A stretch of 64,000 nt of DNA from Patescibacteria group bacterium (GTDB taxonomy: Bacteria > Patescibacteriota > Microgenomatia > UBA1400 > PJMF01). A program made the translations under genes and the position numbers. Location of the stretch: positions 515,271 to 579,270 of the forward strand of contig BOKR01000001.1 in the NCBI GenBank assembly GCA_016861085.1, in the 5' to 3' direction. This document shows, one piece after another, positions 22,233 through 47,613 of this stretch. Positions within the stretch are counted from its first letter, which is position 1. Every line of letters begins with the position of its first letter. The notes under the pieces are model-generated. The model searched no databases. It had not been told where the DNA came from and saw only the letters and a list, made by a program, of their open reading frames with translations.

Positions 22233-23792
22233 ATGTACGTACTTAGTATACTGAAAAAAAATTATATACTCGTTTTCATCTTGCTTTTGGCCTTATTTTT
22301 AAGAGTATACACGATTAGTGGAAACAATATTTTTTTCTACTATGATCAAGCCAGAGACGCAGTTGTTAGCTCCAGCATTATTACTGATAAGGACATAAAG
22401 ATTCAAGGTCCTTCTGTGAGTGGAACAAATGATAGTGTATACCACGGTGTACTATACTATTACGTCATTGCCCCAGCGTATGTACTTGGTGGCGGTAGTC
22501 CATTTGTTGTTTCCGCATACTTGGCAGTCATTTCATTATTGGGAATCATCGTTACCTATAAAATAAGTATAGAAGTCTTTAAATCAAAAACTGTTGGGCT
22601 TATTGCAGCCTTTTTTCAGTCTGTTTCAGCAGTTAGCATTCACTTAAGTACTTGGCTTTCTAACCCGAATTTATCTGGAATATTTGTTCCACTGACATAC
22701 TATTATATTTGGAAAATATTTCTTTCTGAAATAAAACAGTCAAAAATAAGTTATATTTTTTTTGGAGCTAGTATTGCGTTATCTATGCAGTCTGCGTTGC
22801 AGAATATAACAATATTTGGTAGTATTTTTATTGTTTTTATCTATTCAATTTTCAATAAATTCTATAAATTAGAAGTTCAGAAATTACTTTTTTCTGTTTT
22901 TACCTTTTTTGTAGGTATTTCTACAATGATTCTCACTGAAATTCTTATGTATAGACGGGGCATACTTTCACTTGAAAGTTTGAACCTTAACCAACATGAG
23001 ACAAATTTTTTCGAAATATTGCCTCAAATTGCTTCTAAATATTATTTTATTATTTCTAATATTTTGGTTGCGCAAAAACTATTTGTACTTCCAATATTCA
23101 TTGTTCTAATTGCGCTTGTGTTTATCGCTAAAATGAACAGAAAACAAGCTATTTTGATGTTGGTCTTTTTGTTGGCTCCGCTTTGGCTTCTTGTTTGGCA
23201 TTACAGAGATCCAAATCATACATTTATTGGTGTAGAAACTGTTATATTCTTACTGTTATCAGCAGGCATCACACGATTGATAAAGCAAAAGAAGCAAATA
23301 CTCAATTTATTAGGTTTTGCATTTTTGGGAACGTTTGCAGTTGCAAATTTCATACAAATACTTGATTGGAACAAACAACAACATCATCATTTTGGAGTCA
23401 TCCAGAATGGTGCTTTTTTAAACCGCCAACTACAAGTTGTTGACAAAACCTATGAAATAGCTAACGGCTCTCAATTTTCCTTTTCTAGCCTTACAAGTCC
23501 ATATGCAATAAACGCAACATGGGATTATCTGTATAGGTGGCATGGCCAATCCAAATATGGTTACACACCATATTACATTGGTATCGATCAAAAATACTTT
23601 ATTACAGAAAAAGTATTGGAACAAAAATACCAACCAGAAACATTGCATTTTATTATTTTTGAGCCAGATACAACTTTGAGTGAAGAAATTCAAAATGATT
23701 TTATTAAGAATCAATATGACACATTTGGAACATTCACAGTTGATACTAATTACCAATTCGGTTCATTAAAATTAAAACAGCTTGCTCAATAG
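22233..23792 (+). CDS. Polytopic membrane protein, putative GT-C-type glycosyltransferase (family unassigned)
   Basis: 519 aa with at least 10 hydrophobic helices. N-terminal loop FFYYDQARDA is reminiscent of GT-C acidic loop motifs. Confidence 0.4.
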   Translation: MYVLSILKKNYILVFILLLALFLRVYTISGNNIFFYYDQARDAVVSSSIITDKDIKIQGPSVSGTNDSVYHGVLYYYVIAPAYVLGGGSPFVVSAYLAVISLLGIIVTYKISIEVFKSKTVGLIAAFFQSVSAVSIHLSTWLSNPNLSGIFVPLTYYYIWKIFLSEIKQSKISYIFFGASIALSMQSALQNITIFGSIFIVFIYSIFNKFYKLEVQKLLFSVFTFFVGISTMILTEILMYRRGILSLESLNLNQHETNFFEILPQIASKYYFIISNILVAQKLFVLPIFIVLIALVFIAKMNRKQAILMLVFLLAPLWLLVWHYRDPNHTFIGVETVIFLLLSAGITRLIKQKKQILNLLGFAFLGTFAVANFIQILDWNKQQHHHFGVIQNGAFLNRQLQVVDKTYEIANGSQFSFSSLTSPYAINATWDYLYRWHGQSKYGYTPYYIGIDQKYFITEKVLEQKYQPETLHFIIFEPDTTLSEEIQNDFIKNQYDTFGTFTVDTNYQFGSLKLKQLAQ

Positions 23793-25469
23793 TTGATTTA
23801 CTTTTTTTCTAAAAACAATAATTAATCCAATAAAAAATACACTCACTAGAGTTATTGCATTTGCCAATAACACAGTTTTTGTTTGAGTAAATTTGACCTC
23901 TACACTATGCTTGCCTGCTGGTAACCAATACGTTATTACACCCCGGTGATTTATATCTTGAAATTCAATTGGGACCTCTACTCCGTCTGAGTATACTTTC
24001 CAACCTGGATAATAGAATGTGTAATCAATCATTCGAACCGAGTTTTCTGCAGATATTTCATAGGTTCTCAGTGAATTTTTTACAAATACATTCATTAAAT
24101 CAGCTTGACCTTCTAATACTGCAACTTTATCGTCTCTATGAACAGGATATTCTGTTGTACGAGTTGTCCAAATGGTATTCATATTTGATGAATGCAAGTT
24201 ATCGATAGTAAAATAATAGCTGTCTTGGGAAGTTGCAGTGAAATTTTTACCATACACCTGTGCAAATCTATTCCATGACACTACTACAATAATTAACATT
24301 CCTAAAATAATCTGTATACTATCTTTTTTGTGCTTATCAATAAAAAATGCTGCAATAAGAGGTGGGATAAAAATAAAAGTTGATAGCATTCTCCAAGGAA
24401 ATTGAATATTACTTAAAAAATCTATTGAAAGATATATGGGTTCAGCTAATTGAGTGGTTAAGAAAAGTGTGATAATGCCTACAATAACCGATAAGTCAAA
24501 AAGATGAAATTTTTGCTTCTTAATTTTTCGTATAACACCATATACTACTCCAGATAACAATAAAATAAATTCTATTGCTCCAGTTTTAATAAAATGTCCT
24601 CTAGAAAGAATTTCGTTTCTTTCAGTAATAAAGTAGTACCATTGCGGATCAAGGAAATTGTGTAAACCTAATGTAGAGTTAAAAGTATAATAATTTGTAT
24701 ACAACGCATAATAAAAGTATTGAATGTCTTTTAGGAGGGGTAACAAGTAATAACTACTTAACAAAACACCTATAACCCCAGAAGCTGAAATAAGAATAAG
24801 TAACTTTATTTTCTCTTTTTCTTGCAAGATCAAATAGAGAATGTACGGAACAATAAAAAATGCTCCCGTCAAAACATTCATAGGATGGCTTAAGATGAGT
24901 CCAGTAACTGAAAATGAAAGCCAAATAAATGACCACCACGTTTTTTTCCTAGACAGTGCAAACAGAAATATTAGAATAGAAATAAAAAATACTGACGAGA
25001 AATACTCTGGAATAGCACCGCGAATATAGGTATTTATTATTCTATATGGTGCAAAATTAAATAAAAAAGCGCCAATAAAACTAGGCCACTGCCTAAAATA
25101 AAATCGAAGAAAAACATAAAATAACAGCACTGACACCACTGTGGCAATCACATACACCAAATTAAATGAGACAACTACATTATTCGTCAAAAAAGTTAAA
25201 AAACCACCAAGATAGGAAGTTACTTGCTGAATAAAGGACCCAACTGGCAAACCATAATTAGCAAACCCATCAGTCCAACGAACAGGAAAATCACCATCCA
25301 ACAAAGCTGCGTGAAACACAGCCATATTGGTAATATGAGAAGTACCGTCCATATTTGCAGGTTGGTTTTTATAGACAAGGGTATCCAACAAAAACACTAA
25401 TGATGATAGAATGAGTAATAAGAGAGCTAGTAGATCAGTTTTATTTACTAATTTTGATTTAAACAGCAT
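23772..25469 (-). CDS. YfhO-like GT-C membrane glycosyltransferase, paralog 1 of 4
   Basis: N-terminal loop LDGDFPVRW...ANYGLP, mid QFPWRML, and C-terminal extracytoplasmic domain YTFYYPGWKVY...AGKHSVEV. All shared with the genes at 29395, 33534 and 45880. Confidence 0.5.
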   Translation of the reverse strand: MLFKSKLVNKTDLLALLLLILSSLVFLLDTLVYKNQPANMDGTSHITNMAVFHAALLDGDFPVRWTDGFANYGLPVGSFIQQVTSYLGGFLTFLTNNVVVSFNLVYVIATVVSVLLFYVFLRFYFRQWPSFIGAFLFNFAPYRIINTYIRGAIPEYFSSVFFISILIFLFALSRKKTWWSFIWLSFSVTGLILSHPMNVLTGAFFIVPYILYLILQEKEKIKLLILISASGVIGVLLSSYYLLPLLKDIQYFYYALYTNYYTFNSTLGLHNFLDPQWYYFITERNEILSRGHFIKTGAIEFILLLSGVVYGVIRKIKKQKFHLFDLSVIVGIITLFLTTQLAEPIYLSIDFLSNIQFPWRMLSTFIFIPPLIAAFFIDKHKKDSIQIILGMLIIVVVSWNRFAQVYGKNFTATSQDSYYFTIDNLHSSNMNTIWTTRTTEYPVHRDDKVAVLEGQADLMNVFVKNSLRTYEISAENSVRMIDYTFYYPGWKVYSDGVEVPIEFQDINHRGVITYWLPAGKHSVEVKFTQTKTVLLANAITLVSVFFIGLIIVFRKKVNQLLSKLF

Positions 25470-25489
25470 ATTTGTAGGACCATTATAGA

Positions 25490-26089
25490 ATGAATATACT
25501 CAAAAAATCTCATGCAAATAGCACAGTATATTTTGTTGTTGGGTTGCTCATTCTTGTGATTGCATTCATTCAGCAGCCAACACTGCGATCTTGGTTGGGA
25601 ATCGGAAATACAAAGATGTGGAATGATTTGGTTCAAACTGTTAATTCTGGATCTCAATCGGTTGCACAGGATGTATGGATGTTTAGAGAATTCTATTCTC
25701 GAGGCAGAATATATCTACAAAAACAGCAACAGTTTCCTATTCCAGAAGAACTGAGTTCTACAGTAAGCTTGCCAGAGTCATTTTCGCCATATTTACTTTT
25801 TAGGTCTCCAAAGTTAGTAAGTATTGAAGGAAGTTTTATTCAGACCGACTCACTGTTCTTTTCTGAAAAATATCTTAAATCTCTAGGTTGGGAGATGGTA
25901 GCACAATCTAGCTCAACTCAAATTGTTACTTCAAAAGACAAAACAGTTGCACTTATTATTAGTGTTTTTGACATACAAGAAGCAAGCACTGCAAATGGAT
26001 ACTTATATTTTGATTTAAGAGACAATACATTTGCTCAAGCAATGAACCAAAAGAAATGGCTTACCATTAGCCTTGTGTCCTTACAATGA
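25490..26089 (+). CDS. Hypothetical exported/membrane-anchored protein (N-terminal signal anchor)
   Basis: Single N-terminal hydrophobic segment VYFVVGLLILVIAF. Ser/Thr-rich patches. No recognisable domain. Confidence 0.4.
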   Translation: MNILKKSHANSTVYFVVGLLILVIAFIQQPTLRSWLGIGNTKMWNDLVQTVNSGSQSVAQDVWMFREFYSRGRIYLQKQQQFPIPEELSSTVSLPESFSPYLLFRSPKLVSIEGSFIQTDSLFFSEKYLKSLGWEMVAQSSSTQIVTSKDKTVALIISVFDIQEASTANGYLYFDLRDNTFAQAMNQKKWLTISLVSLQ

Positions 26090-27795
26090 TGTATACTCGT
26101 ATGGCAATGCAATTTCTAAAAAAACACAAATTTGCCTTACTCTTAGCATTTGTACTTATTGTAGCTGTACTCCTTAGATTTCCCTTTTTAAGTGTGTTTC
26201 CTCCAAGCATGTTACAAGATGAGGTGGGAATTGGATATGCAGCAATAAGTATTGCTGAAACTGGTATGGATGAATGGGGTGAAAAATTTCCACTCATCTT
26301 TAAGTCATTTGGTGATTTTAAAGCTCCTGGGTTCATTTATGTTACGGCAGTACTATATAAACTGATAGGATGGCAAGAGGTCTTACCTAGAATTACTTCT
26401 GCTATTGCTGGCGTATTTGTAGTTTTGTTCGGGACGCTGTGGATTAAAAAAATATTTAAATCAGATGAACTTGCATTGGTAGCTGGTCTGCTACTCGCTG
26501 CTAATCCTTGGACTATTCACTTAAGCAGAATGGCTCTTGAATCTAACCTTGGCTTAGCTTTTTTTATGGCAGGATTATTGTTTCTCAGCCATGCTCAAAA
26601 CTCGTATTTTAAAATAATTTTGTCAGCAGTTTTTTTTAGTTTCAGCACATATACGTTTCACAGTTTTCGATATGCAGTGATACTTTTTTTACTGGCAACA
26701 ATTTTTGTCACACTCATACTTTACTTCAAAGAAATTAAAAAAAAGACACTATATTTAAAGAGTCTCATTTTTATTTTTGTTATTTCTACTATACTTTCTT
26801 TACCTGGTTTTTTTGCAAAAGGTGCAACTGGAAGACTGAATCAAACACTTATTATTACTTCAGATGACTATATAAAGCTCTCAGAGCACTACGAAAATAA
26901 TTGTCATGGAACTTTTATCGAAATAAATCCAAAATTAACCATTCTATGTAAGCTGAAATATAATAAATTTACCAGACAGGCTTTGATAGGAGTTGAGAGC
27001 TTGGTTAAGCATTTTTCACCAGATTTTCTATTTATTTCTGGTGATACAGAGGTGTTGCGCAATCCAACACAAAGTGGCCAATTTTATGTATTTTTACTGC
27101 CATTCTGGATGATTGGTTCTCTTTTGTTGTTTAAAAACATAAAAGAACAGTATCCTATACTACTTGGGTATTTTGTTGCGCTTGTGCCTTCCACAGTTTC
27201 AGGTAACCCACACTCTACGCGCCTTTCAATTCTTATACCATTTGTACTCGTTACTCTTGTACTAGGGTATCAGTTTTTAAAAGACTATTTCAGAAAAGTT
27301 ACATATTTTTCCTTCACATTTTTGAGCATTCTTCTTGTGTTTCTTGGTCTATTCGTAATTCGGTATTCTGTTGATACATTTGCTACTCATGAAATTACTG
27401 CAACATATCTTTCATACGCTAAAAGAGTAGCAATGCTAGAAGGTGAATACCTCAAAAAAGGATATACTGTCTTTGCTGATCATGACCTCTACCCAGAACC
27501 ACACATGTATTATGCTTACTTCAATAAAATTGATCCAAGGATAACTCAGGAGTCGTTTGCCAAAATCTACGAGGAATCTGCCGGTTTTTCCCGACCAAAG
27601 CAATTCGGAGAGTCTCTCTTTTTTGAAAAAGGCGACTTTTTTGCACTCGACTGTGAACTGAATAAAATAAAGCCATCAGTCTTTTTTACTAATGATGCTC
27701 TTGAGAAAATTGAACCAATCACTATTATTAAAGACAATACGCATTTATACAGTTTTGTATATGTTTATGAAGGTTCACAAAAATGCTTGGATTAG
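26086..27795 (+). CDS. PMT/ArnT-like GT-C glycosyltransferase (GT39/GT83-like), paralog 1 of 4
   Basis: First extracytoplasmic loop carries a DE motif (MLQDEVGIGYAA). About 12 TM segments. Confidence 0.6.
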   Translation: MMYTRMAMQFLKKHKFALLLAFVLIVAVLLRFPFLSVFPPSMLQDEVGIGYAAISIAETGMDEWGEKFPLIFKSFGDFKAPGFIYVTAVLYKLIGWQEVLPRITSAIAGVFVVLFGTLWIKKIFKSDELALVAGLLLAANPWTIHLSRMALESNLGLAFFMAGLLFLSHAQNSYFKIILSAVFFSFSTYTFHSFRYAVILFLLATIFVTLILYFKEIKKKTLYLKSLIFIFVISTILSLPGFFAKGATGRLNQTLIITSDDYIKLSEHYENNCHGTFIEINPKLTILCKLKYNKFTRQALIGVESLVKHFSPDFLFISGDTEVLRNPTQSGQFYVFLLPFWMIGSLLLFKNIKEQYPILLGYFVALVPSTVSGNPHSTRLSILIPFVLVTLVLGYQFLKDYFRKVTYFSFTFLSILLVFLGLFVIRYSVDTFATHEITATYLSYAKRVAMLEGEYLKKGYTVFADHDLYPEPHMYYAYFNKIDPRITQESFAKIYEESAGFSRPKQFGESLFFEKGDFFALDCELNKIKPSVFFTNDALEKIEPITIIKDNTHLYSFVYVYEGSQKCLD

Positions 27796-29420
27796 TCAAA
27801 AAAAATACTCATATTGCTATATTGGTAGTAACCTTACTAGCAGCATTCATTTTTAGAACAATACAATTGGCACAAACCCCAAGCGGTTTTCATGCCGATG
27901 AAGCTTCATTTTATATAAATGCAGTTTCACTTTCACAAACCGGTATGGATGAAGATGGGAATAAACTACCGCTTTCACTTGCTTCGCTTATTGATCCCAA
28001 GCCAGCTTTGTACTCCTATTTACAGATACCTTTCTTATTTATTTTTGACAACCAAGTTTTTGCAGCACGATTTGCCTCAGCCGTGTTATCCATTCTATCG
28101 CTTGGATCATTATATTTACTCATAAAAGAAATTGCAGACAAAAAAATTGCCTTACTAATTACAATTGTTCTGTCTATCTCCCCCTGGCATGTAATTGTTA
28201 GTAGAGGAACTCAAGAAGTTATCACTTCATTTTTCTTTCTAGTTGCGACTTTTTTATTTTTAGTTCAGTACCTAAAAAATCAAAAAAAATCTATTGTGTT
28301 AATTCCTTTTGCAATTAGTGGTTTTTTAAGCATGTACTTGTATCACTCAGCAAAAATAGTATTACCTCTCTTAATTTTGTGCTTTGTTATTTTCTATTTC
28401 AAAAAAACAAAAGAGTATCTCAAAAAAAGTGTCACAGTATTACTTATAATTGCCACGGCTACTCTATTCTCTCTTTTTATTCAAGAGAGTGCATCAAGAA
28501 TATCTGCAGTAAGTATTTTTAATGACCAAGGACCACAACAAAAATTATTTGAGCAAATTTACACCAACAGAACAGAGGTGCCAGTTTCTATAGTAAGAGT
28601 TTTTTACAACAAAGTACAAACGTATACCCTTGCAATTTTTCATGAATACACCAACTATTTTTCTCCTGAATTTTTATTTTTTTCCGCTTCTAAGCCAACA
28701 CGAAACTCAATAACTGATCATGGACTATTGTATTTAATTGAGCTGCCACTAATAGCAATTGGTCTTTACGCTGCCATTAAGAATAAACGAAGAGACTTTT
28801 TTTTATTTGTTGCTTTACTCATCATTAGCCCCATTCCTGCAAGTTTAACCACTCAAGAAACCCCTAGTTTATTGCGTTCATTTCCAATGGTCATTTCTTT
28901 AGCATATTTTGTTGCAATGGGTATTGATGCATTATTTAAAATTAATTCAAAGCTAATAAAAGCTTTAGTAGTATCTTCTATTTCTGTTATATATCTCTGG
29001 CATATGTGCTACTTTGCATTACAGTATCATGTGCAAACCAGGTTTACACAGCCTTGGTTTAGGAATACTCCATATACTAAAATTGCTCAAGAAGTAGCAC
29101 TGATTTCAGATGGATTTGAAAGGATAGAAGTTACAAATGACTTACGTCCGTTATATGCATATTTTGTAATAGAAAATTTAATTTCTATTGAAGAGCTTCA
29201 AGCACATCCATATGCCCGTAACCTTAGTAATTACAATCTTGGAAAGTTCAGTTTTAATAGAGATGTGTGTGATTTTGGTGACATTAAAATGAACGTTTTG
29301 TATATTGCAGAGATTGGTTGCCGCGAGAAAAACTCAAAGTTATCTCAAATGGAAGTGATAAAAGTAATTTCATACGACGACAACACCCAAGCATATGAAC
29401 TTTTACAAGTTACTCAGTAA
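27783..29420 (+). CDS. PMT/ArnT-like GT-C glycosyltransferase, paralog 2
   Basis: GFHADEASFYINAV DE-motif loop. Polytopic. Confidence 0.6.
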   Translation: MLGLVKKNTHIAILVVTLLAAFIFRTIQLAQTPSGFHADEASFYINAVSLSQTGMDEDGNKLPLSLASLIDPKPALYSYLQIPFLFIFDNQVFAARFASAVLSILSLGSLYLLIKEIADKKIALLITIVLSISPWHVIVSRGTQEVITSFFFLVATFLFLVQYLKNQKKSIVLIPFAISGFLSMYLYHSAKIVLPLLILCFVIFYFKKTKEYLKKSVTVLLIIATATLFSLFIQESASRISAVSIFNDQGPQQKLFEQIYTNRTEVPVSIVRVFYNKVQTYTLAIFHEYTNYFSPEFLFFSASKPTRNSITDHGLLYLIELPLIAIGLYAAIKNKRRDFFLFVALLIISPIPASLTTQETPSLLRSFPMVISLAYFVAMGIDALFKINSKLIKALVVSSISVIYLWHMCYFALQYHVQTRFTQPWFRNTPYTKIAQEVALISDGFERIEVTNDLRPLYAYFVIENLISIEELQAHPYARNLSNYNLGKFSFNRDVCDFGDIKMNVLYIAEIGCREKNSKLSQMEVIKVISYDDNTQAYELLQVTQ

Positions 29421-32929: not shown

Positions 32930-33495
32930 TTAACTTTCAGATATGTGGCGTTGTACCACAGTTTATCTTTAAGTAACTCTTTTTCTTTGGGGATGTAATC
33001 AAACATTCCAACAACCTTCTGCATTTCCTCAATTGACTCAACAAACGCAAATACATACTCTGTGTCAGTAGCTTTAATGAGAACAAAATCATTCCCTTTT
33101 GAAACAATTTCACCGGGAAACTCATTTGTTATTTTTTTAAGTGCCTCGTCTGCTGTACTAGAAACAACTGCATCAAGACTTCGTAGATAAGTCGAATCAT
33201 AATAAAATAGTGGAGTTACAGCATCAGCTACAGAAATAATTCTGAATGTGCCGTAAAAACCAGTAAATTCTTCATCTCGTAAAAAAGTCCCTGGGCTAAA
33301 CCGTTCTCTGAATTCCCAATATTTTTCTGGATCAAACTCATTTGCTAACAAATCTCTTTTGAGTTTTTCAAATAACCCAATTCGATAATCGGAATTAAAT
33401 TTTGGCTTGAGATAAGGATGCTGAAAAACCGAGACTACCATAACAAGAACTGCAACTATAATGAAAAAAAGTCGATTCGAAGGCTGAGTAATCAT
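32926..33495 (-). CDS. Hypothetical membrane-anchored extracytoplasmic protein
   Basis: N-terminal TM segment LFFIIVAVLVMVVSVF followed by a soluble domain. 4-nt convergent overlap with the upstream gene. Confidence 0.4.
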   Translation of the reverse strand: MITQPSNRLFFIIVAVLVMVVSVFQHPYLKPKFNSDYRIGLFEKLKRDLLANEFDPEKYWEFRERFSPGTFLRDEEFTGFYGTFRIISVADAVTPLFYYDSTYLRSLDAVVSSTADEALKKITNEFPGEIVSKGNDFVLIKATDTEYVFAFVESIEEMQKVVGMFDYIPKEKELLKDKLWYNATYLKVN

Positions 33496-33533
33496 GAATT
33501 TATTATAGCACTACAATGAGGTATACTTGATCC

Positions 33534-39584: not shown

Positions 39585-40511
39585 TTAAATTATTACTTTA
39601 TTTTTTTGCATGTGTTTCTTACGTTTATAATTCCAATAGGGAAGCCACAAATAATATTGTAGTAATTGCCAAAAAGTCGCATTTTTTTTCACAAAAGCAA
39701 CTGCATTCTTCCAACTCATGTCTAGTATTTTTTGTAAACCAAAAACGTCGATGTTAGTTGATTCATGAACATGAAACACAATTGCTTTTTCATCGAACAA
39801 CACTTTCCAGCCATTTTTACGAGCTTGAAAGGAGAGATCAACATCCTCCCAATAGGCAGGATAAAACGTTTGATCAAAGCCGTTTAGAAAAACCCACTTT
39901 TGCTTATCAAACATACCGCTACCTCCACTTACCCAAGCAGTTTGACCAGAAATCATGTCTGTAGCTTTACTATGCATAAACATACCTTTTTCAAACCACA
40001 ACTTGTTTTTACCTGACCTATCTCCACTTTCATCTCGTTCAAATTCTAAACATCCAACTGCAAATACTAAGGGGTCAGTAAAATGCTGTATCAACTCTGA
40101 TCTAACATTTTTGGTAGGTTTAACATCGTTATTGAGTAGAAAAATATACTGTTTACTGGAAAACATAACCCCAATATTAGCTGCTGCTGCAAAACGCATA
40201 TTTTTTTCTAAAGCAACCAAATATATAGTAATTTTATTTTTTCCAATAACTGCAATGTTAGTATATAGTTTGTAAATAAAGTCTGTTGGTTGTGGAAAAT
40301 ATTTTTTAGATACAGCTGTAGGCAATTGAACACGTTTTGTTAATTTTAACTTATAGGTGCGAATTAAATATTTAACACTTTCATCGGAACTATTATCATC
40401 GACAATCACAAGCTCATCTCCATTACTCAAACAACGCAACACGTCAGGCAAAAACTTTTTTAAAAGTGTTTGACCGTTGTAGTTTGGAATAACGGCGGAT
40501 ACAATTTGCAT
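39585..40511 (-). CDS. GT2-family glycosyltransferase
   Basis: VSAVIPNYNGQTLL, LVIVDDNSSDES motifs. Confidence 0.7.
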   Translation of the reverse strand: MQIVSAVIPNYNGQTLLKKFLPDVLRCLSNGDELVIVDDNSSDESVKYLIRTYKLKLTKRVQLPTAVSKKYFPQPTDFIYKLYTNIAVIGKNKITIYLVALEKNMRFAAAANIGVMFSSKQYIFLLNNDVKPTKNVRSELIQHFTDPLVFAVGCLEFERDESGDRSGKNKLWFEKGMFMHSKATDMISGQTAWVSGGSGMFDKQKWVFLNGFDQTFYPAYWEDVDLSFQARKNGWKVLFDEKAIVFHVHESTNIDVFGLQKILDMSWKNAVAFVKKNATFWQLLQYYLWLPYWNYKRKKHMQKNKVII

Positions 40512-41594
40512 TTAGAACATCTCCCAAAGTGTTTTCTCAAATTCTTGTTTACTAAATTTTTTAACTTGATTAAGTGATACTTCTTGAAATTTTTTATATG
40601 TATCTGGATTAGTTATTAAGTCCTTGGTAATTTCAACACATTGCTCACCAGTTTCCCAAAGCAAATCATGTAATGGTAAACCTAGAATCTCTTTTTGACC
40701 GCCTTTTTTGATAACAATAGGTACACAGCCAGCTGCCATAGCCTCTATTGTACTAATACCAAAATGCTCAACTTTTTCAGGGTTTGAATTTTCATCAACA
40801 CCAAACCCCGTTGCATGCCAATAGAATGAGGCTGTTTTATACAAAGAAACCAGCTCATCTCTGGAGACAGTAGTTTTTATTTCAATGGGATATGCTCCAA
40901 CTGAATCTTTTACTTGATTAAAGTAAAGTTCATCTTCAACTGATCCAACTAAAACCAATCTCCACCCCTGCGTTTCATTTTTATATTCATCAACCAGTTT
41001 TTTAAACAGCTGAACTAAAACATCTTGGCGTTTACTATGCAGTTGCCTAAAAAAACGACCAACGTTTAGAATTATCTTTTCTTTATTTTTTTTAGGTGAA
41101 ATTTCATCTAAAGAAACAAGTGGATAATGTACAAAGTTAATTGTTGTATTCCAGCTCTTTTCAATAACACTTTTAGTAAATTGGGAATTAGTATTTTTTA
41201 CATTCCAACTTGCGAGTTTAATTTTCTGCCATACATTCAGTGAGTTTGTAAAAGGAATTTGCACATGCAAGATATTTTTCTTTGCCATACTCAAAAAGAA
41301 GCTGCCATCTGTAACATAATATACTGCGTCATATAAGCTAGTTTCTTGTAATTTTTCATATATTGAACCAGTTTTTAATTTTGAAGAAATAAAAGTTATT
41401 TTTTTCAAGCTATAATTTAAAAATTGTTCATATTTATTAGTAATTTCATTTATTTTTTCACGTGAAATAAATTCTTCTGATAGTGCAATAAAAACCTCAT
41501 GTTTTGTAGCAACAGTAGTTGCAACATCAAAAAAATGTTTTTCACCACCACCAAGGTGGTCTGGAATATACGGAGAATAAAATAATACTCGCAT
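40512..41594 (-). CDS. GT4-family glycosyltransferase
   Basis: HFGISTIEAMAAGCVPIV. Start set at the internal ATG (MRVLFYSPY) that forms an ATGA overlap with the upstream stop; the ORF track start 41678 would overlap by 85 nt. Confidence 0.7.
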   Translation of the reverse strand: MRVLFYSPYIPDHLGGGEKHFFDVATTVATKHEVFIALSEEFISREKINEITNKYEQFLNYSLKKITFISSKLKTGSIYEKLQETSLYDAVYYVTDGSFFLSMAKKNILHVQIPFTNSLNVWQKIKLASWNVKNTNSQFTKSVIEKSWNTTINFVHYPLVSLDEISPKKNKEKIILNVGRFFRQLHSKRQDVLVQLFKKLVDEYKNETQGWRLVLVGSVEDELYFNQVKDSVGAYPIEIKTTVSRDELVSLYKTASFYWHATGFGVDENSNPEKVEHFGISTIEAMAAGCVPIVIKKGGQKEILGLPLHDLLWETGEQCVEITKDLITNPDTYKKFQEVSLNQVKKFSKQEFEKTLWEMF

Positions 41595-42412
41595 TACTGA
41601 CTCTTCCACATGTTTTCGATTTCTGCTTCTTTTGCTACATATTTTTCCGAAATCGAAGGCTTTTGCTGTAACTCCCATACCTGAATGTACACTATCACAC
41701 GGTTTATCCCCTGAATCACTGCTTCAACCAAGCCCGCCATACCGTCTTTATACCCCTGCTTTAAAACCGCACGTCTAAAAAACTCCATAAACCCTTTTCT
41801 AAACAAGGTTAGCAACGTTACTTTTGGAACTCCGGCTTTGAATAGCTCTTTTGCTTCAATTGGAGTCCAGGCAGCAGTTTTATGTAGACCGCTGACTGTA
41901 TCTCTGTGTGTAAAATGAACGAGCTTTGTCTGCAAATCAGCAACTTCTCCTGAATATTTGGGACTTTCGTGAACCTGCCCAAACCAACCCGTTATTGCAT
42001 TCTTTTCAAAAACTCGCTCTACCCAATCATCCTGCCATCCACCGGCTTTAAATCGCTTCCCAAAGTAAATATTTTCACGCTGAACCCTAAACACTTTTGT
42101 ATCTGATGTTTCAATCATTACTTTGATTTCTTTGGCTAATGTAGGTGTGACTCGCTCATCAGCATCGATATACAAAACCCAAGCCGATTTAGCTCTCTTT
42201 AAAGCTTCTTCTCTGAGGCGAGAGAAGGAATCATGTTTAAATGAAATAACGATTGCACCAAGACTCTCAGCAATTTCACGAGTCTCATCAGTTGAACCAT
42301 CATCAATTACAATTATTTCATTGCACCACAACACACTTTTAATGCAGTTTGCAATCATTTCTGCTTCATTTTTAGCGATTATCAAAGCACTAATTGACAG
42401 TTGTTTACTCAT
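41594..42412 (-). CDS. GT2-family glycosyltransferase (WaaE/KdtX-like)
   Basis: ISALIIAKNEAEMI, IVIDDGSTDET, YIDADERV motifs. Confidence 0.65.
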   Translation of the reverse strand: MSKQLSISALIIAKNEAEMIANCIKSVLWCNEIIVIDDGSTDETREIAESLGAIVISFKHDSFSRLREEALKRAKSAWVLYIDADERVTPTLAKEIKVMIETSDTKVFRVQRENIYFGKRFKAGGWQDDWVERVFEKNAITGWFGQVHESPKYSGEVADLQTKLVHFTHRDTVSGLHKTAAWTPIEAKELFKAGVPKVTLLTLFRKGFMEFFRRAVLKQGYKDGMAGLVEAVIQGINRVIVYIQVWELQQKPSISEKYVAKEAEIENMWKSQ

Positions 42413-42461
42413 AAGATCATCTTACCTCAAAAGGAGCTTGTGACCAACTGGTACTTTGCAA

Positions 42462-43394
42462 TTATAGGATCGGCTGTTTACCGAATTGCATAGTAAAAAA
42501 ATGAACAATAGCTTGGCGTTGCGCTGACGAACCAAAAACAAGGATTGAAACAGCTATTCTCATAGCGGTAACAATTTCTTTCCAGGTTCCATGCTTAAAT
42601 GCAAACAGTAATCTATTTCTTGTTTGGTAGTACTCATGAATAACCGAGCCTGAACCACCACTTGAACCAGCATTTTTATGATATACAACCGATGAAGGAC
42701 AAAACGCTACTTTATATCCAGCTTTGGTAACTCTTACACTCCAGTCGACATCTTCAAGATACAAGAAAAAACGTTTATCAAACATTCCAACCTTTTCCAA
42801 GATCTCACGTTTCACCAAAACACTACAACCCGTCGCAAAATCAGATTCTGTCTGAGTATCAAACTGTCCCCTATCAACCTCATCAACTCCTCTATGAAAT
42901 GCAGCTAAATGATTCCAATCAATAGAGCCACCAGCATACCACAAAACAGTACCAAGCTCTGATTTCTTGTACGACTCACTGTGAAACTCTCTCCCCTTTG
43001 AAAAATAAATTTTTGATCCCACCATACCAATGCGTGGATCAGATTGTGCAGTACGCACCAATTCTTTTAAAAACTCTTCATCTACAGTTGTGTCATTATT
43101 GAGGAGTAATACATAATCAGAATTGTATTTCTCAACGCCATAATAAACACCAAGATTATTCCCTCCAGTAAATCCTTTGTTCGTTTCACTTCTAATAACT
43201 TCAATGTGATCAGTTTGTAAATCCTTAGGTAATTCAAAAATATCTTTTGAGGCATTATCCACAACAATAATATTACATTTAAAACCTGAGCATTTGATCT
43301 TTTCAAGTGAACGCAAACAATCAATGGTGTCTTCTCTTGAGTTATAGGTAATGAGTATGATTGAAACATGAATCATAGAATGCCTATTATACAA
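42462..43394 (-). CDS. GT2-family glycosyltransferase (rhamnosyltransferase-like)
   Basis: VSIILITYNSREDT, IIVVDNASKD, LLLNNDTTV motifs. Confidence 0.7.
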   Translation of the reverse strand: MYNRHSMIHVSIILITYNSREDTIDCLRSLEKIKCSGFKCNIIVVDNASKDIFELPKDLQTDHIEVIRSETNKGFTGGNNLGVYYGVEKYNSDYVLLLNNDTTVDEEFLKELVRTAQSDPRIGMVGSKIYFSKGREFHSESYKKSELGTVLWYAGGSIDWNHLAAFHRGVDEVDRGQFDTQTESDFATGCSVLVKREILEKVGMFDKRFFLYLEDVDWSVRVTKAGYKVAFCPSSVVYHKNAGSSGGSGSVIHEYYQTRNRLLFAFKHGTWKEIVTAMRIAVSILVFGSSAQRQAIVHFFTMQFGKQPIL

Positions 43395-44324
43395 CTATAT
43401 ATATAACTTTCGACGAATTTTCCAAATAAGTTGTCTAATACCAGAAGTATTCTCAACGTGCCAGTTTGCAATCCAGTATGCAAGCTCCCTATTAAACTGT
43501 GCTAATTCGGATACAGTTGCTTCTTCTTGTTGTTTATCAGATTCAGGAAATCCACTCTTTTCCCAAGATTTTATAGCCACTACAGCTTCAGAAAACCCTT
43601 GTAGTAACGATAATGCCAGTCCATGAGTACCATCATTTACTCCTCTTTGTGCAAAAAACCGAGATAAAAACTCAGAGTAAAATTTCTTTGTGATACATGA
43701 GCCATCAACTTCTGTCTGTTCTTTTTCGAGTTCAGTTACCAATTCCTCAGACTGAATTGAAGTATATCTATTCAACCGGTCAATGTATTGATTAACATGT
43801 TGATAGTTATGGTGAATAAGCGCAATACCAGTGACAGCTGGTAATTCCCTTACTTCTCCTTTTGTAATTGGAATTGAATGAATTTCATCAGACCAAGAAA
43901 CAAACCCTTTCTTGAAAAGTCTCAATACATAATCTGGCCACCAGCCTGTCTTTTCAAAAGCCTTGTTAAAAATATAGTTAAGTCGTGGAATATAATAACA
44001 ATCAGCAGTTTCTTCACCTGAATCTGAAGATTTCAGAATTCCTTTAATAGCTTTTTCTAGTTCTTGTGGAACTTCTTCATCAGCATCTAAAATTAAAATC
44101 CAGTCTCCACTTGCTTTTTTAATCGCAAAATTTCGAGCTGGCTCTACATACCCCACATCTTTATGAGCAAAAATTTTATCGGTATATTTAGTTGCAATTT
44201 CTACCGTACTATCGTCGCTTTTCATGTCAACAATGATTATTTCATCGGCAAATGAGACAGATTTTAATGCAGCTTCTATTGTTTTTTCCGCATTCTTTGT
44301 ATTAATGACGACTGATAGTTTCAT
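43395..44324 (-). CDS. GT2-family glycosyltransferase
   Basis: LSVVINTKNAEKTI, IIIVDMKSDDST, ILDADEEV motifs. Confidence 0.7.
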   Translation of the reverse strand: MKLSVVINTKNAEKTIEAALKSVSFADEIIIVDMKSDDSTVEIATKYTDKIFAHKDVGYVEPARNFAIKKASGDWILILDADEEVPQELEKAIKGILKSSDSGEETADCYYIPRLNYIFNKAFEKTGWWPDYVLRLFKKGFVSWSDEIHSIPITKGEVRELPAVTGIALIHHNYQHVNQYIDRLNRYTSIQSEELVTELEKEQTEVDGSCITKKFYSEFLSRFFAQRGVNDGTHGLALSLLQGFSEAVVAIKSWEKSGFPESDKQQEEATVSELAQFNRELAYWIANWHVENTSGIRQLIWKIRRKLYI

Positions 44325-45883
44325 GAACGTAAGCTCCTTAACTCCATGAGTACTTTATTTTTTCCAAACAACAGTAGTGTAACAAAATAGGTGAGGGCAG
44401 TTAAGAGCATACCAAACAAGAAGTGCTTAAAACTTTGTGACCAAATTTGTATACCCAGGCCTCCAACTACGGCCATCGCTACAGATGCAAGTGTCTGTCG
44501 CCATACCTGATCAATAAATGAGAGTGGGACAACTTTCTTGACCATAATGACAGAGAAAATTGAAGTAAAAGAAATAAAGAATGATGCAATTGCCACCCCG
44601 TTGTACCCAAACATATAAACACAAATCGGAGTAACTATCCAAGTTAATATAGTCCACATCATCATTAATTTGAGCGTTTTGTTTATCTGACCAATCGCAT
44701 TAAGTGTATTTGTAAGAGGAGTTGAAACAGCACTCCAAGCAATACTAAGACTAAATAACACTAAACTAAAAACAGCAGGTTCCCATTTCTGCCATTTTGG
44801 TATCAGCTGAATAAATGGCCAAATGAAAACACTCATACCAACTAAGATTGGAAATATCGCCAATGTTATAAAGAATATTGATTTTTCTATTGCACGCTTG
44901 AGTGCTTGAGTATTTCCTTGTAGTCTTGAAAAAGTTGGGAACGTAATAGCCATTACATTTTGAACTGTTAAATTATAGGGATACATAGAGTAGTTTTTGC
45001 CCCAATTGATATAACCAAACTCTGCCAAATTTAAATATAATCCAAGAACTAAATAAAACAATTGATCTTTAATTCTCGCCAAAAAATCATTAATTTGAAA
45101 TTTAACTCCAAACTTAAACATCTCTGCAAATGCTACTTTACTAAATCCAAATGACAAAGCCCAAGGTTGAATCATAAACATTGAAAGAGCACCAACTATA
45201 GACCGCATAAAAATAGCGTACGCATATGCCATTGCACCCACACCCTTAATTGCAAGAAAGATTAAAATGCCATTAAATACCAGTTGCTCTATGATTTGAG
45301 GTATCACTAACTTAGAAAATTCCAAACGTCTTTCCAGTATCACAGAGGGTATTGTTTTAAGCGAAGCAAGCGGAAATCCAAGAGCTAATGAAAGTAAAAT
45401 CCAGACACCTGCTGGACCAGTCTTGGCCTGAATAACACCTGTGGCAAGCACCAAAAGAACAATTCCAACAATAACCCAACTCAATGCTTGCTGAATCGTG
45501 AATGCGGTCACATAATCGGCCTTAGTAGGGTCAGATTTTTTTTGAATCAGTGATGCAGCTAATCCTACATCTGAAAAAAAAGTCAACAATCCAACTATCG
45601 GAATCACTAATCCATAAATTCCGAAATCCTCTGGAGTAAAATACCAAGAAAGTACTGCAACCGAAGCCAAACCAATTCCTTGCAAAAAAATGGTTCTTAT
45701 AAAGTAAGAAATTGCTCCACTAACAGTTTTTTTCTTAATGTCACGCAATACTTCTGTTTCAACTTGAGTATCATGGACTTCTTGTTCAGGAAACAAGTCT
45801 GTCACTTCCGGTTCAAGCTCCTGAGAAAAGAGTGCTGACTTTTTGCGCTTAACCTCTAAGCTAGCTTGTACTTTATTAATCAT
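44321..45883 (-). CDS. Wzx-type oligosaccharide/polysaccharide flippase (MOP superfamily)
   Basis: 520 aa with about 14 TM helices, polysaccharide-biosynthesis-protein-like topology. Located at the head of a GT2/GT4 block. Confidence 0.55.
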   Translation of the reverse strand: MINKVQASLEVKRKKSALFSQELEPEVTDLFPEQEVHDTQVETEVLRDIKKKTVSGAISYFIRTIFLQGIGLASVAVLSWYFTPEDFGIYGLVIPIVGLLTFFSDVGLAASLIQKKSDPTKADYVTAFTIQQALSWVIVGIVLLVLATGVIQAKTGPAGVWILLSLALGFPLASLKTIPSVILERRLEFSKLVIPQIIEQLVFNGILIFLAIKGVGAMAYAYAIFMRSIVGALSMFMIQPWALSFGFSKVAFAEMFKFGVKFQINDFLARIKDQLFYLVLGLYLNLAEFGYINWGKNYSMYPYNLTVQNVMAITFPTFSRLQGNTQALKRAIEKSIFFITLAIFPILVGMSVFIWPFIQLIPKWQKWEPAVFSLVLFSLSIAWSAVSTPLTNTLNAIGQINKTLKLMMMWTILTWIVTPICVYMFGYNGVAIASFFISFTSIFSVIMVKKVVPLSFIDQVWRQTLASVAMAVVGGLGIQIWSQSFKHFLFGMLLTALTYFVTLLLFGKNKVLMELRSLRS

Positions 45884-47613
45884 TTCTTTTTATGGTACCA
45901 GAAGAATATTCCAGATGATACACCAACCCCTACTATTGTTAGCCATAATCCAAATTGTCTTACTGGTGTTTGCTTTAGTTGTATAGAAACCGTATGTTCA
46001 CCAGCTGGTACACTTACTTGTACAAACCCCTCATCTGATTGAGTAACAGCTGTTTTTACACCGTCAATATCTGCTGACCATCCAGGAAAATCTGCGATTG
46101 CAAATACTAGCTGTTGATCAGTATGAGAAGTCACAGCAATTCTTTTTATGTGAACTTTATCATCGAGTATTTTGTAGGAAATCACGCAATTTTCTATTAC
46201 CTGACAATATAACACATGGCCTCTGAGCGCTGCTGGTTCGATCACTTTTTGTTGAATTTGGATTGGAATGTAGTCGGGAAGCGTATTACTCATTTCTGTT
46301 CTCAGCTTGTTTTCATCAGAATAAAAATAATCACTCAGATCAGACCTAAAAATTTCAGGCTGAAAATATTTGCTGTTCATGACAATCATGAGCAGTAGTA
46401 AAAAAAGTCCATACCCAAATTTTAACAACTTGTTCTGTAATAAAGCAGGTAGTGACCCAATAGCTAAAGCCAAAAATACAGTTGCAGCTGAAAGGTATCT
46501 CCATGGGAATTGTAAAAACTCTAAAGCTGGAAACAACTCCCAAATAAATTCCAACTTCGCCGTAGTCATCAACAATGAGACTGCGAGAATAACAATGAAA
46601 AAGAGATAGAAAATTGTGTGTTTTTCAAGTGATAGCGTACCTTTTTTCTGAAGAATTCCGGCAACTGCTTTCAGAACAATATAACCAGAAAGAAACAATC
46701 CTAGTAATTGGCCAAATCCCAAATAAAATGAAATGTCATCTAATGGACCATAGGTAGAACCACCATACCCCCAGTTCTCGATAAAAAATTGTCTCAGCGA
46801 CAAAAAATGCAATTTGTAGTTAAAATAGTCTGCCAAAATGGTTGGTTCAAGTCGGGTAAAATCCTTTTCAAGCAATGCTGGGACTGTATAAAATGAGCTC
46901 AAAAGCACTGCTAACCCATATAATGCTGCAAGTTTTAATACAATGTTCCAAAAGTATTTTTTGATTTTCTTGTCAGATTTACTCTCAAGCAGTACATACA
47001 TTAGACCAAACAGGATTGAAAATGGTAAGAAAACAAGTGCCGTTAAATTATGACTCAGTAATAACACAGTAATTGAGCCAAGTAGGATTAGCCATCCGTT
47101 TTTTTCACCCTTAACTGTCTTAATAATTCCTAACAAGATAAATGGCAAACACATGATTCCCCACGCTTCACTTACTGCTCCCCTCACAAATAAATTGACA
47201 GCCCTATATGGAGCTAAAGTAAGAGCAGCGCTTACGAGTAGGCCACCTGTTATTCCGAATAAACGTTTTCCAAGTACATATCCACCTATAGTTGTACCCA
47301 CTGCTGTGAGTAACATAAGCAATTTAATGGAATCTATCAATGAAAAACCAATAATATATAAAAGTGATCCAACATAATAAGGAAGCGGAGCATAAAATTC
47401 AAACAGTGGCATGCCGTATCCATAGCCCAAATTTGAGCTCCAAATCACTGGGAAATGACCATCCTTGAGCCCAGCAGTCATCTCAACAATACGAGCGCCT
47501 TGAGTGAAATCATGCACTCTAAAAAAATCAGACCTAAATAATGCCCATGAGCTGGCTAAGATTATTGAGAGCAAAATTAGGACAACTAAATATTTTTGAA
47601 TTATTCTAAACAT
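45880..47613 (-). CDS. YfhO-like GT-C membrane glycosyltransferase, paralog 4
   Basis: KDGHFPVIWSSNLGYGYGMP, QFPWRYLS, and C-terminal DFPGWSADIDG...AGEHTVSIQL. Confidence 0.5.
   Translation of the reverse strand: MFRIIQKYLVVLILLSIILASSWALFRSDFFRVHDFTQGARIVEMTAGLKDGHFPVIWSSNLGYGYGMPLFEFYAPLPYYVGSLLYIIGFSLIDSIKLLMLLTAVGTTIGGYVLGKRLFGITGGLLVSAALTLAPYRAVNLFVRGAVSEAWGIMCLPFILLGIIKTVKGEKNGWLILLGSITVLLLSHNLTALVFLPFSILFGLMYVLLESKSDKKIKKYFWNIVLKLAALYGLAVLLSSFYTVPALLEKDFTRLEPTILADYFNYKLHFLSLRQFFIENWGYGGSTYGPLDDISFYLGFGQLLGLFLSGYIVLKAVAGILQKKGTLSLEKHTIFYLFFIVILAVSLLMTTAKLEFIWELFPALEFLQFPWRYLSAATVFLALAIGSLPALLQNKLLKFGYGLFLLLLMIVMNSKYFQPEIFRSDLSDYFYSDENKLRTEMSNTLPDYIPIQIQQKVIEPAALRGHVLYCQVIENCVISYKILDDKVHIKRIAVTSHTDQQLVFAIADFPGWSADIDGVKTAVTQSDEGFVQVSVPAGEHTVSIQLKQTPVRQFGLWLTIVGVGVSSGIFFWYHKKK

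Follow-up and report, generated by a model that had tools for sequence, protein, structure and literature searches.

Eleven GT-C-type enzymes, ten intact and one frameshifted, are encoded in a single cell-wall glycan gene island of a Patescibacteria bacterium with a tiny genome. The island lies in the 64-kb stretch of DNA analyzed here (the window; Table 1), and the eleven GT-C genes span approximately 18 kb. The locus is probably the membrane-side half of a cell-envelope glycan island of about 50 kb, carried by a bacterium with Microgenomates-type relatives.

Family and fold of the eleven membrane proteins

The first-pass annotation described eleven large multi-TM proteins. All of these open reading frames are present and all encode polytopic proteins with approximately 8–10 hydrophobic segments each; a hydropathy scan gave this number for A, B, C, E, F, G, K, M, N, and P (about nine for A), consistent with the 8–13 TM helices that define membership. 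Profile searches reproduced the proposed family split, with C, G, K, and P in the PTPS_related/YfhO group, F and M in PMT_2, and A in Mannosyl_trans2. Six proteins (A, C, F, G, M, and P) score above a Pfam cut-off, E, H/I, and K join by BLASTP, and B joins by hhalign to the N family. The four PMT-like proteins are F and M, which exceed the PMT_2 (PF13231) cut-off of 26.1 bits, together with E and H/I, which have no direct Pfam match and are placed by all-versus-all BLASTP homology to F and M (7e-32, 6e-23, and 1e-7). In the YfhO-like group, C, G, and P reach the PF09586/PF10131 threshold, while K is included by homology to C only (32% identity, E 5e-90); K is also related to P (E 1e-30). The YfhO score of P, 27.2 bits, is just below the cut-off of 28.5. 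The match of A to PF04188 (27.8 bits, cut-off 22.4) covers profile positions 58–262 of 443 and its membership is marginal.

The two proteins left without a family, B and N, belong together: B aligns to the N-family profile over 443 columns (hhalign probability 97.9%, E 4e-13). The N family, which is marked by the motif FxFDHGKD, has no Pfam match of its own, and its distant members reach PMT_2 at 21–32 bits. A structural model of N shows a helical TM bundle and a C-terminal alpha/beta domain; its best structural matches are ArnT, PMT, and the eukaryotic ALG/PIG mannosyltransferases, at a sequence identity of 10–14%. The fold common to solved GT-C enzymes is seen in the modelled N and is predicted from profiles for the YfhO-like and PMT_2-like proteins; hhalign links all three groups to one another at the profile level. 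PDB sequence searches with the N-family, YfhO-like, and PMT_2-like profiles returned nothing relevant, and NCBIfam gave two matches in all, both sub-threshold.

An Asp-containing motif with a putative catalytic role follows TM1 in all eleven proteins. The DE loop reported for the PMT-like proteins is indeed found after TM1, as QDE in E, ADE in F, WDE in M, and HDE in H. The first extracytoplasmic loop contains YDQARD in B (D40 and D44), FDHGKD in N, with both aspartates invariant in 46 sequences, and ADS in A. In C, G, K, and P, an Asp after TM1 usually has a His nearby. Low Pfam scores (B 17.6, K 24.9, M 28.3, and A 27.8 bits) and the absence of a direct Pfam match for E, N, and H/I could be taken to mean that these are permeases or structural membrane proteins merely resembling GT-C enzymes. 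No member of the eleven moved to a permease family (MFS and Wzx are encoded by additional genes), and this reading, largely refuted, is extremely improbable. Homology and profile evidence indicates that all eleven are members of the GT-C superfamily. The term 'PMT-like' is valid in this broad sense alone: only B matches PF02366 (PMT, GT39), at 17.6 bits against a cut-off of 22.7, which does not place it in GT39, and Pfam detects no MIR domain in any array protein.

A 163-residue open reading frame (31101–31592) had been taken for a small exported protein. It is instead the DE-loop-bearing N-terminal fragment (H) of a PMT_2-like gene, the remainder of which (I) occupies 31613–32929. In BLASTP, H aligns with the N-terminal regions of E, F, and M, and I with the C-terminal part of F. 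The ortholog in the related locus L007 spans the junction in two frames (...ASFFF / FYTFGAY...), and the orthologs in L005, L006, L007, and L043 are single intact reading frames of 589–613 residues. A sequencing artefact was judged unlikely because three other assemblies carry the same split.

Table 1. Predicted features of the glycan island, in window coordinates
Feature	Position	Strand	Assignment	Evidence or remark
GT2	16462–17208	−	Candidate polyprenyl-phosphate sugar synthase (DPMS/ArnC/GtrB-like)	Glycos_transf_2 120.9 bits
DUF2304	17165–17515	−	Small membrane protein (GacJ/Rv3632 type)	DUF2304 60.8 bits; three hydrophobic segments
GT2	17497–18171	−	GacI-sized candidate polyprenyl-phosphate sugar synthase	Glycos_transf_2 84.8 bits
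A	19101–20288	−	PIG-V-like GT-C, 395 aa	Mannosyl_trans2 27.8 bits; PMT_2 25.1 bits
A-module GTs	20285–22169	−	Cytoplasmic GT4 (20285–21373) and GT2 (21360–22169)	Pfam; module kept in relatives
B	22233–23792	+	GT-C of N/B family, 519 aa	hhalign to N-family profile
C	23772–25469	−	YfhO/PTPS_related-like GT-C, 565 aa	PTPS_related 66.2 bits
D	25490–26089	+	N-terminally anchored protein, 199 aa; J paralog	Divergently paired with C
E	26086–27795	+	PMT_2-like GT-C, 569 aa	No direct Pfam match; BLASTP M 7e-32, F 6e-23
F	27783–29420	+	PMT_2-like GT-C, 545 aa	PMT_2 42.7 bits
G	29395–31104	+	YfhO-like GT-C, 569 aa	PTPS_related 59.7 and YfhO 47.3 bits, both above cut-off
H+I	31101–32929	+	Single PMT_2-like GT-C gene, interrupted by a −1 frameshift	T6 run at 31560–31565
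J	32926–33495	−	N-terminally anchored protein, 189 aa	Divergently paired with K
K	33534–35201	+	YfhO/PTPS_related-like GT-C, 555 aa	PTPS_related 24.9 bits, just below cut-off 26.4
L	35178–36353	−	MFS transporter, not GT-C	MFS_1 77.6 bits
M	36357–37982	−	PMT_2-like GT-C, 541 aa	PMT_2 28.3 bits; conserved core
N	37990–39567	−	GT-C, 525 aa, family without Pfam match	Conserved core
Five GTs	39585–44324	−	Cytoplasmic GT2, GT4, GT2, GT2, GT2	Pfam; conserved core
O	44321–45883	−	Wzx-type flippase, not GT-C	Polysacc_synt_3 162.7 bits
P	45880–47613	−	YfhO/PTPS_related-like GT-C, 577 aa	PTPS_related 37.5 bits
LCP	47664–48752	+	LytR-CpsA-Psr glycopolymer-to-peptidoglycan ligase	LytR_cpsA_psr 97.8 bits; divergent from P
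rmlB, rmlC, rmlD	48991–51539	+	dTDP-rhamnose synthesis	GDP_Man_Dehyd/Epimerase, dTDP_sugar_isom, RmlD_sub_bind

Conserved gene order and duplication history

The layout of the array is more than chance: two other species (L043 and L044) show an identical gene order over 16462–35201, and a core operon is found again in about a dozen species. In L043 and L044, the genes from A to K, the C/D pair among them, are collinear with those here and 52–85% identical, with orthologs of C at 71–73%. The core consists of rmlD, rmlB, and LCP on one strand and P, Wzx, GT2, GT2, GT2, GT4, GT2, N, and M on the other, the order of the five cytoplasmic glycosyltransferases being kept in about a dozen species. P is the first gene of this operon; its orthologs adjoin LCP and Wzx in most related loci, O adjoins P in every related locus compared, and M comes after N in most. 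LCP is kept beside P and Wzx, and relatives also keep RmlB and RmlD in synteny with it. Orthologs of A sit in a GT2-GT4-A-epimerase-GT2 module in five loci (L013, L014, L036, L043, and L044).

The first-pass annotation also saw a repeating cassette of a YfhO-like protein, a small exported protein, and two PMT-like proteins. The supposed small protein is H, a fragment of the split gene, and therefore no such cassette exists. The history of duplication drawn from it does not hold either: the paralogs are old, each having its own orthologs at 55–79% identity in other species. A recent duplication was ruled out at the DNA level, where positions 19000–48800 contain no repeat longer than 41 nt and the matches that do occur show 64–84% identity and fall at conserved motifs. 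Judging from protein similarity, the truly duplicated unit is a divergent two-gene module, represented by C/D and K/J, and it is ancient (32% identity between C and K, 17% between D and J). D has no Pfam or NCBIfam match, and its direct BLASTP comparison with J is not significant (E 0.054). Their homology is supported by an intermediate sequence, the L005 ortholog of J, which matches D at 2e-7, and by a full-length alignment in which D matches the J family end to end and keeps its invariant residues. A scan for promoters and terminators was uninformative, as sites were no commoner than in shuffled sequence, and no Rfam family was found in the 64-kb window.

Donor supply, export, and the likely product

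Two GT2 genes flanking the DUF2304 gene are candidates for donor synthesis. The best solved relatives of the first (16462–17208) are DPMS 5mlz (1.7e-19 over the whole catalytic domain), ArnC (about 5e-16), and GtrB 5ekp, and it has no TM segment; those of the second (17497–18171) are, in order, DPMS 5mlz (2.8e-10), GalT1 (5hea), and ArnC. The DUF2304 family includes GacJ, which stimulates GacI, and Rv3632, which does the same for PpgS; both targets are polyprenyl-phosphate sugar synthases (10.1101/180810). A third candidate synthase, the GT2 at 1764–2441, was rejected, as its best solved relatives are ordinary GT2 enzymes. Only two candidate synthases are therefore seen, versus ten intact GT-C enzymes.

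The interval from 22233 to 47613 also holds genes that the first reading did not mention: the MFS gene, the Wzx gene, and five cytoplasmic GT2/GT4 genes. The five glycosyltransferases have no TM segments, and the best solved relative of one of them (42462–43394) is a GlfT2-type galactofuranosyltransferase (8e-13). In L005, L006, L008, and others, the position of the MFS gene is occupied by an unannotated reading frame of about 650 residues, and in L007 no gene was detected between the M and K orthologs. Synthesis of dTDP-rhamnose is reported to be conserved in Microgenomatia (PMC9166423). Of the Wzx/Wzy-dependent pathway, the 64-kb window contains Wzx and the LCP ligase. It holds no initiating phosphoglycosyl transferase (WecA/TagO/WbaP type; Bac_transf, MraY-type), no recognizable Wzy (Wzy_C, O-ag_pol_Wzy, EpsG), and no ABC exporter, so that the pathway is incomplete as seen there and the rest may lie elsewhere in the genome.

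Extracytoplasmic glycosylation dependent on polyprenyl-phosphate sugars, as originally proposed, is the best reading of this gene set (two DPMS/ArnC/GtrB-like GT2 genes, DUF2304, Wzx, LCP, and rmlBCD), and the nearby DPMS/ArnC-like, DUF2304, and Wzx genes support the use of such donors at the outer face of the membrane. From these genes we infer the donor lipids, the order of steps, and that the acceptor is a wall polysaccharide and not a protein. In the cytoplasm, GT2 and GT4 enzymes would assemble an oligosaccharide or polysaccharide on a polyprenyl carrier; the two DPMS/ArnC-like enzymes would load single sugars onto polyprenyl monophosphate, probably helped by the GacJ-type DUF2304 protein. 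Wzx would bring the lipid-linked sugars to the outer face, and the MFS protein may contribute to this step. There the ten intact GT-C enzymes, from four subfamilies and each probably with its own donor and linkage specificity, would polymerize, transfer, and branch the glycan, and the neighboring LCP enzyme would join the product to peptidoglycan.

The original proposal left the acceptor as wall polymer, protein, or both. Some or most of the GT-C enzymes could be protein O-glycosyltransferases that use polyprenyl-phosphate sugars to modify S-layer proteins, pilins, or Ser/Thr-rich extracytoplasmic regions of membrane proteins, as the YfhO-family proteins PgtC2 and PgfM1/M2 glycosylate proteins in streptococci and Pmt does in actinobacteria. 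However, the tight synteny of the core with LCP, rml, and Wzx argues for a polymer linked to peptidoglycan; MIR domains are lacking and the PF02366 score of B is sub-cut-off; and D, J, and the neighboring reading frames are not Ser/Thr-rich by eye. Wall-polymer assembly is favored because the LCP-rml-Wzx synteny is conserved, and we keep protein targets as an unlikely option. It is less probable still that the array makes a membrane-anchored lipoglycan or glycolipid (lipomannan/LAM-like), with GT-C enzymes extending a lipid-anchored primer outside and the MFS protein flipping the anchor like LtaA: the LCP ligase is the most conserved neighbor of the core, the MFS gene is absent from the closest syntenic relatives (L005 and L007), and no anchor-synthesis genes were identified.

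For the wall polymer, we tentatively suggest a more specific scheme, itself somewhat unlikely, in which the main glycopolymer of this lineage is made largely outside the membrane by a dedicated GT-C assembly line, which would parallel the making of mycobacterial arabinogalactan. The N/B family or P would, speculatively, replace the missing Wzy as polymerase on polyprenyl-linked oligosaccharides, like the GT-C enzyme WpsI in Lactococcus; D and J would be specific partners of C/K-type enzymes; and the variable extra GT-C genes may form a species-specific surface glycan code for host attachment or phage evasion. The 'combinatorial' glycosylation suggested earlier is unproven. Close species share a stable gene order and content, although the complement varies across the wider lineage, with about 1–8 GT-C-like genes counted up to 10 kb from the N ortholog in both directions.

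Related systems and significance

Glycosylation systems of three and four components have been described, as has the Wps 'complex modification system', in which one GT-C enzyme acts as polymerase and another as transferase (PMC9574508). Genes for all four component types of GacIJKL (candidate GT-A polyprenyl-phosphate sugar synthase, DUF2304, Wzx, and GT-C) occur in the locus but do not form one contiguous operon. The rhamnose-rich wall polysaccharide systems GacI/GacJ/GacK/GacL and Wps of Lactococcus lactis likewise combine a GT-A enzyme and DUF2304 activator with cytoplasmic elongating glycosyltransferases, Wzx, outside-acting GT-C enzymes (the polymerase WpsI and the transferases WpsJ and GacL), an LCP ligase, and rml genes. 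The locus studied here differs in several respects: its ten intact GT-C enzymes, against one to three in those systems, come from other subfamilies; no rhamnan ABC transporter or Rgp-type genes were recognized; about 27 kb separate the GacI/J-like genes from Wzx; and the organism belongs to the Patescibacteria and has a genome of about 1.2 Mb.

In the three-component CsbB/GtcA/YfhO system of teichoic-acid glycosylation (Bacillus, Listeria) and in protein glycosylation by streptococcal PgtC2 and PgfM1/M2, the GT-C proteins resemble the YfhO-like group: G and P match the YfhO model (P just sub-cut-off), all four members (C, G, K, and P) fit the related PTPS_related model, the proteins are polytopic with a C-terminal TM segment, and a polyprenyl-phosphate sugar is the donor to be expected. 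A role of YfhO in LTA glycosylation has been reported (PMC5836110). The YfhO scores here are low (at most 47 bits), PTPS_related fits better, no GtrA/GtcA-type flippase or GtrB-type GT2 with TM segments was found, and none of the annotated genes in the window was recognized as a teichoic-acid synthesis gene. Mycobacterial and corynebacterial arabinogalactan/LAM assembly (GlfT2; AftA-D, EmbA-C, PimE; PpgS-Rv3632; Lcp1) also employs a distinct GT-C battery, polyprenyl-phosphate sugars, a DUF2304 partner of a synthase, a GlfT2-like GT2, rhamnose, and LCP ligation to make a wall polymer outside. Its genes are dispersed, whereas those here are clustered at one locus, with no sequence-level orthology to Emb or Aft proteins and no Glf or DPA-synthesis genes seen. 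ArnT, PMT (GT83/GT39), and the eukaryotic ALG/PIG enzymes share the GT-C fold and the acidic motif in the first outer loop, but beyond the low identity and PMT scores and the lack of MIR domains, they surely act on other acceptors.

The genomes of Patescibacteria (CPR) are tiny, and every member cultivated so far lives attached to another microbe. To our knowledge, almost nothing has been established about their envelope chemistry, and literature searches on GT-C/YfhO arrays in Patescibacteria/CPR found no description, in line with the original remark that such a system had not been characterized in these organisms. The longest contig with an identical N protein is 1.17 Mb; if this is nearly the whole genome, the array occupies about 1.5% of it. 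Together with the layout conserved in related species, this investment implies that these cells cannot do without an elaborate surface glycan made outside the membrane. The close relatives with the same layout suggest that much of the surface sugar coat of these reduced cells is probably built outside the membrane. CAZy-style CPR surveys report mainly GT2 and GT4, and may overlook the GT-C investment of this group. The analysis defines a concrete conserved operon (LCP divergent from YfhO-like, Wzx, five glycosyltransferases, N, and M), a GT-C family without a Pfam match (FxFDHGKD), and the candidate accessory family D/J. The operon, the N family, and D/J provide testable entry points to CPR cell walls, host recognition, and phage receptors.

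A glycan-biosynthesis island with eleven GT-C genes

Bases 1 to about 51,500 form a single large glycan-biosynthesis island, as seen in the ORF listing and Pfam scans, followed by the housekeeping genes trmD, gltX, dnaX and bipA. The flagged interval sits between a left part that supplies unusual sugars and a right end that carries the LCP ligase and rml genes. Two of the four methyltransferases in the left part are of the FkbM type, and the genes of this part suggest that nonulosonic, uronic and methylated sugars occur in the glycan. An M28-like DUF4910 protein is also encoded there, as is a soluble protein with matches to Pec_lyase, glucuronyl C5-epimerase and LanC-like proteins. Just outside the island, a 370-aa ORF without a match in the Pfam scan encodes a single N-terminal TM segment and, after it, a poly-proline stretch.

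The eleven ORFs that the first-pass annotation listed as GT-C genes exist and are polytopic, based on the ORF listing and a hydrophobic-segment scan. In all-against-all BLASTP, the YfhO-like genes C, G, K and P are all paralogs of one another (23–32% identity), E hits both M (7e-32) and F (6e-23), and B and N match reciprocally at 9e-9. Profile–profile comparison connects the PMT_2-like genes to N (probability 97.2%) and the YfhO-like to the PMT_2-like genes (96.3%). GT-C identity holds for all eleven; assignment to unrelated transporter or permease families, the outcome named beforehand as speaking against it, did not arise, and a role of the array unrelated to glycosyl transfer is essentially excluded. 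The earlier account of the interval was incomplete in one respect: Pfam also finds an MFS gene, a Wzx gene and five GT2/GT4 genes. Among the latter, the core GT4 and the GT2 upstream of it share 85 nt when each is called as its longest ORF; translation of the GT4 probably begins downstream of the start so called.

Features of the island and its right flank, with profile scores in bits
Feature	Position	Strand	Assignment
Left part	1-15475 (1-15.5 kb)		Unusual-sugar supply: DegT, NeuB, GNAT, UDP-GlcNAc 2-epimerase, UDP-sugar dehydrogenase, four methyltransferases, several GT2/GT4
Soluble protein	8041-9141		
First DUF2304-flanking GT2	16462-17208		
Second DUF2304-flanking GT2	17497-18171		
A	19101-20288		Mannosyl_trans2 27.8
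B	22233-23792	+	GT-C, N/B family
C	23772-25469		PTPS_related 66
D	25490-26089	+	Small anchored protein
E	26086-27795		GT-C
F	27783-29420		PMT_2 42.7
G	29395-31104		PTPS_related 60, YfhO 47
H	31101-31592		N-terminal part of split GT-C
I	31613-32929		C-terminal part of split GT-C
J	32926-33495	-	Small anchored protein
K	33534-35201		PTPS_related 24.9 (cut-off 26.4)
MFS transporter	35178-36353	-	Within flagged interval
M	36357-37982		PMT_2 28.3
N	37990-39567	-	GT-C, N/B family
Five soluble GT2/GT4	39585-44324		Within flagged interval
Core GT4	40512-41678	-	
GT2 upstream of core GT4	41594-42412	-	
GlfT2-like core GT2	42462-43394	-	
Wzx flippase	44321-45883	-	Within flagged interval
P	45880-47613		PTPS_related 37.5; YfhO 27.2 (below cut-off)
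LCP ligase	47664-48752		Right end of island
rmlB, rmlC, rmlD	48991-51539		Right end of island
370-aa ORF	52195-53307	+	

The N/B family and the history of the paralogs

N has no match in Pfam, NCBIfam or PDB sequence searches. In an alignment of 46 homologs, F-x-F-D-x-G-K-D is invariant directly after TM1, with a nearly invariant His at the x position. The AlphaFold2 model of N has a mean pLDDT of 93, and its fold relatives by structure comparison include mycobacterial Aft and Emb enzymes. The alignment of B with the profile of the N family spans 443 columns (probability 97.9%, E 4e-13), and B contains an equivalent D-x-x-x-D motif. An exhaustive HMMER search with the N family returned 458 clusters at E≤1e-30 and 2,628 at E≤1e-10. 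Core members have no Pfam match and more distant ones just attain PMT_2, so N and B are a divergent offshoot related to PMT_2. Named homologs come from MAGs of Microgenomates, Pacebacteria, Woesebacteria and Beckwithbacteria. BroJett025_05230, from a 'Patescibacteria group bacterium' MAG, is identical to N; contigs carrying identical N reach 1,173,889 bp.

The repeating cassette proposed initially, a YfhO-like gene, a small exported protein and two PMT-like genes, is absent. Instead, the duplicated unit is a divergent gene pair, in which a YfhO-like GT-C gene of the C/K subtype stands beside the gene for a small protein with an N-terminal anchor: C is paired with D, and K with J. The two small proteins share only 17% identity, yet they align end to end, have the family's invariant residues in common and are linked by an ortholog in the related locus L005; from these alignments we consider them distant paralogs. 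Neither has a Pfam match; both combine an N-terminal anchor with an alpha/beta domain whose fold matches, all weak, are Mog1/PsbP/DcrB/LpqN-like. The pairs are kept in loci L005, L007, L008, L026, L043 and L044, with D/J evolving faster (52–59% identity) than most neighbouring GT-C genes (57–79%). A search of the region found no DNA repeats. In L043 and L044, every paralog is matched by a separate ortholog (52–85% identity) and the gene order is the same, a pattern largely kept in L005 and L007. The GT-C duplications are therefore ancient.

H, first reported as a separate small ORF of 163 aa, and I (438 aa) are one PMT_2-like GT-C gene. By BLASTP, H resembles the N-termini of E, F and M, and I the C-terminal part of F. 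With 62% identity, the 613-aa ortholog in L007 matches two reading frames of the window, and these join at ASFFF/FYTFGAY within a T-run; orthologs are also intact in L005, L006 and L043. A -1 frameshift lies at 31557-31566, where T6 (31560-31565) would need to be T7 to restore the frame. Because three other, independent assemblies of the same organism share the split, the frameshift is real, and the gene is either a pseudogene or in an off state; it could be a slipped-strand on/off switch.

Conservation across relatives

A genome scan with N-family motifs gave 36 loci, and all those with informative titles are Patescibacteria. Loci L007, L010-L013, L017, L022, L023, L025, L027, L028 and L034-L039 are titled 'uncultured Pseudomonadales bacterium ... 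binchicken/SRP...'. These contigs hold a Patescibacteria-type locus at 35–75% identity, and the titles look like placeholder mislabels of MAGs.

Mapping the window's proteins onto the loci revealed a core that recurs in about a dozen species: rmlD, rmlB and LCP on one strand, with trmD alongside, and P, Wzx, GT2, GT2, GT2, GT4, GT2, N and M on the other. A second recurrent module comprises GT2, GT4, A, an epimerase, GT2, DUF2304 and GT2. The remaining GT-C genes vary: counted up to 10 kb away from the N ortholog in both directions, there are 1–8 GT-C-like genes, a lower bound because the count rests on BLAST comparison with the window's proteins. In this range the window has seven, as many as L005 and L007, out of a total of eleven. 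Beside the M ortholog, L005 (13180-15117), L006, L008, L013, L014, L016 and L021 share a conserved ORF of about 650 aa that carries no annotation; in the window, the MFS gene takes its place.

Proposed pathway and significance

Among solved structures, dolichol-phosphate mannose synthase is closest to both GT2 proteins flanking the DUF2304 gene; ArnC is among the matches of both, and GtrB among those of the first. DUF2304 members include GacJ and Rv3632, which stimulate GacI and PpgS, respectively (10.1101/180810). This GT2-DUF2304-GT2 set matches published three-/four-component transmembrane glycosylation and the L. lactis Wps 'complex modification system'. In Wps, cytoplasmic glycosyltransferases build a C55-P-linked oligosaccharide, a Wzx protein flips it, the GT-C enzyme WpsI polymerises and the GT-C enzyme WpsJ transfers, and the rhamnan backbone is proposed to be attached to peptidoglycan by an LCP enzyme (PMC9574508). 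The component types of the core operon are exactly those of Wps.

In the proposed pathway, lipid-linked sugars would be synthesised intracellularly and then flipped by Wzx; the ten intact GT-C enzymes would polymerise, transfer and branch a wall glycopolymer, probably rhamnose-containing, which LCP would ligate to peptidoglycan. Neither an initiating phosphoglycosyl transferase nor Wzy is present in the 64-kb window; either they are encoded outside it, or the polymerase is one of the GT-C enzymes, N or P. The closest solved relatives of one core GT2 are GlfT2-type galactofuranosyltransferases (8e-13); the window showed no UDP-galactopyranose mutase. Given this GT2 and the Aft/Emb fold matches of N, the overall logic also resembles mycobacterial arabinogalactan assembly. 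PimE/Aft-like fold matches and the MFS gene make a lipoglycan a possible product. Protein O-glycosylation by some members of the array is a real alternative to the wall glycopolymer: in streptococci, the YfhO-family enzymes PgtC2 and PgfM1/M2 glycosylate proteins within Ser/Thr-rich regions.

A full-text literature search turned up no account of arrays of GT-C, YfhO or PMT genes in CPR/Patescibacteria; one CPR ecogenomics paper reports mainly GT2 and GT4 among CAZymes and conserved dTDP-rhamnose synthesis (PMC9166423). Since its mechanism class is well known, the array is not categorically new. It stands out for the number of GT-C genes that a genome of about 1.2 Mb carries, for an operon whose architecture is conserved, for a GT-C family without a Pfam match, and for the paired D/J proteins.
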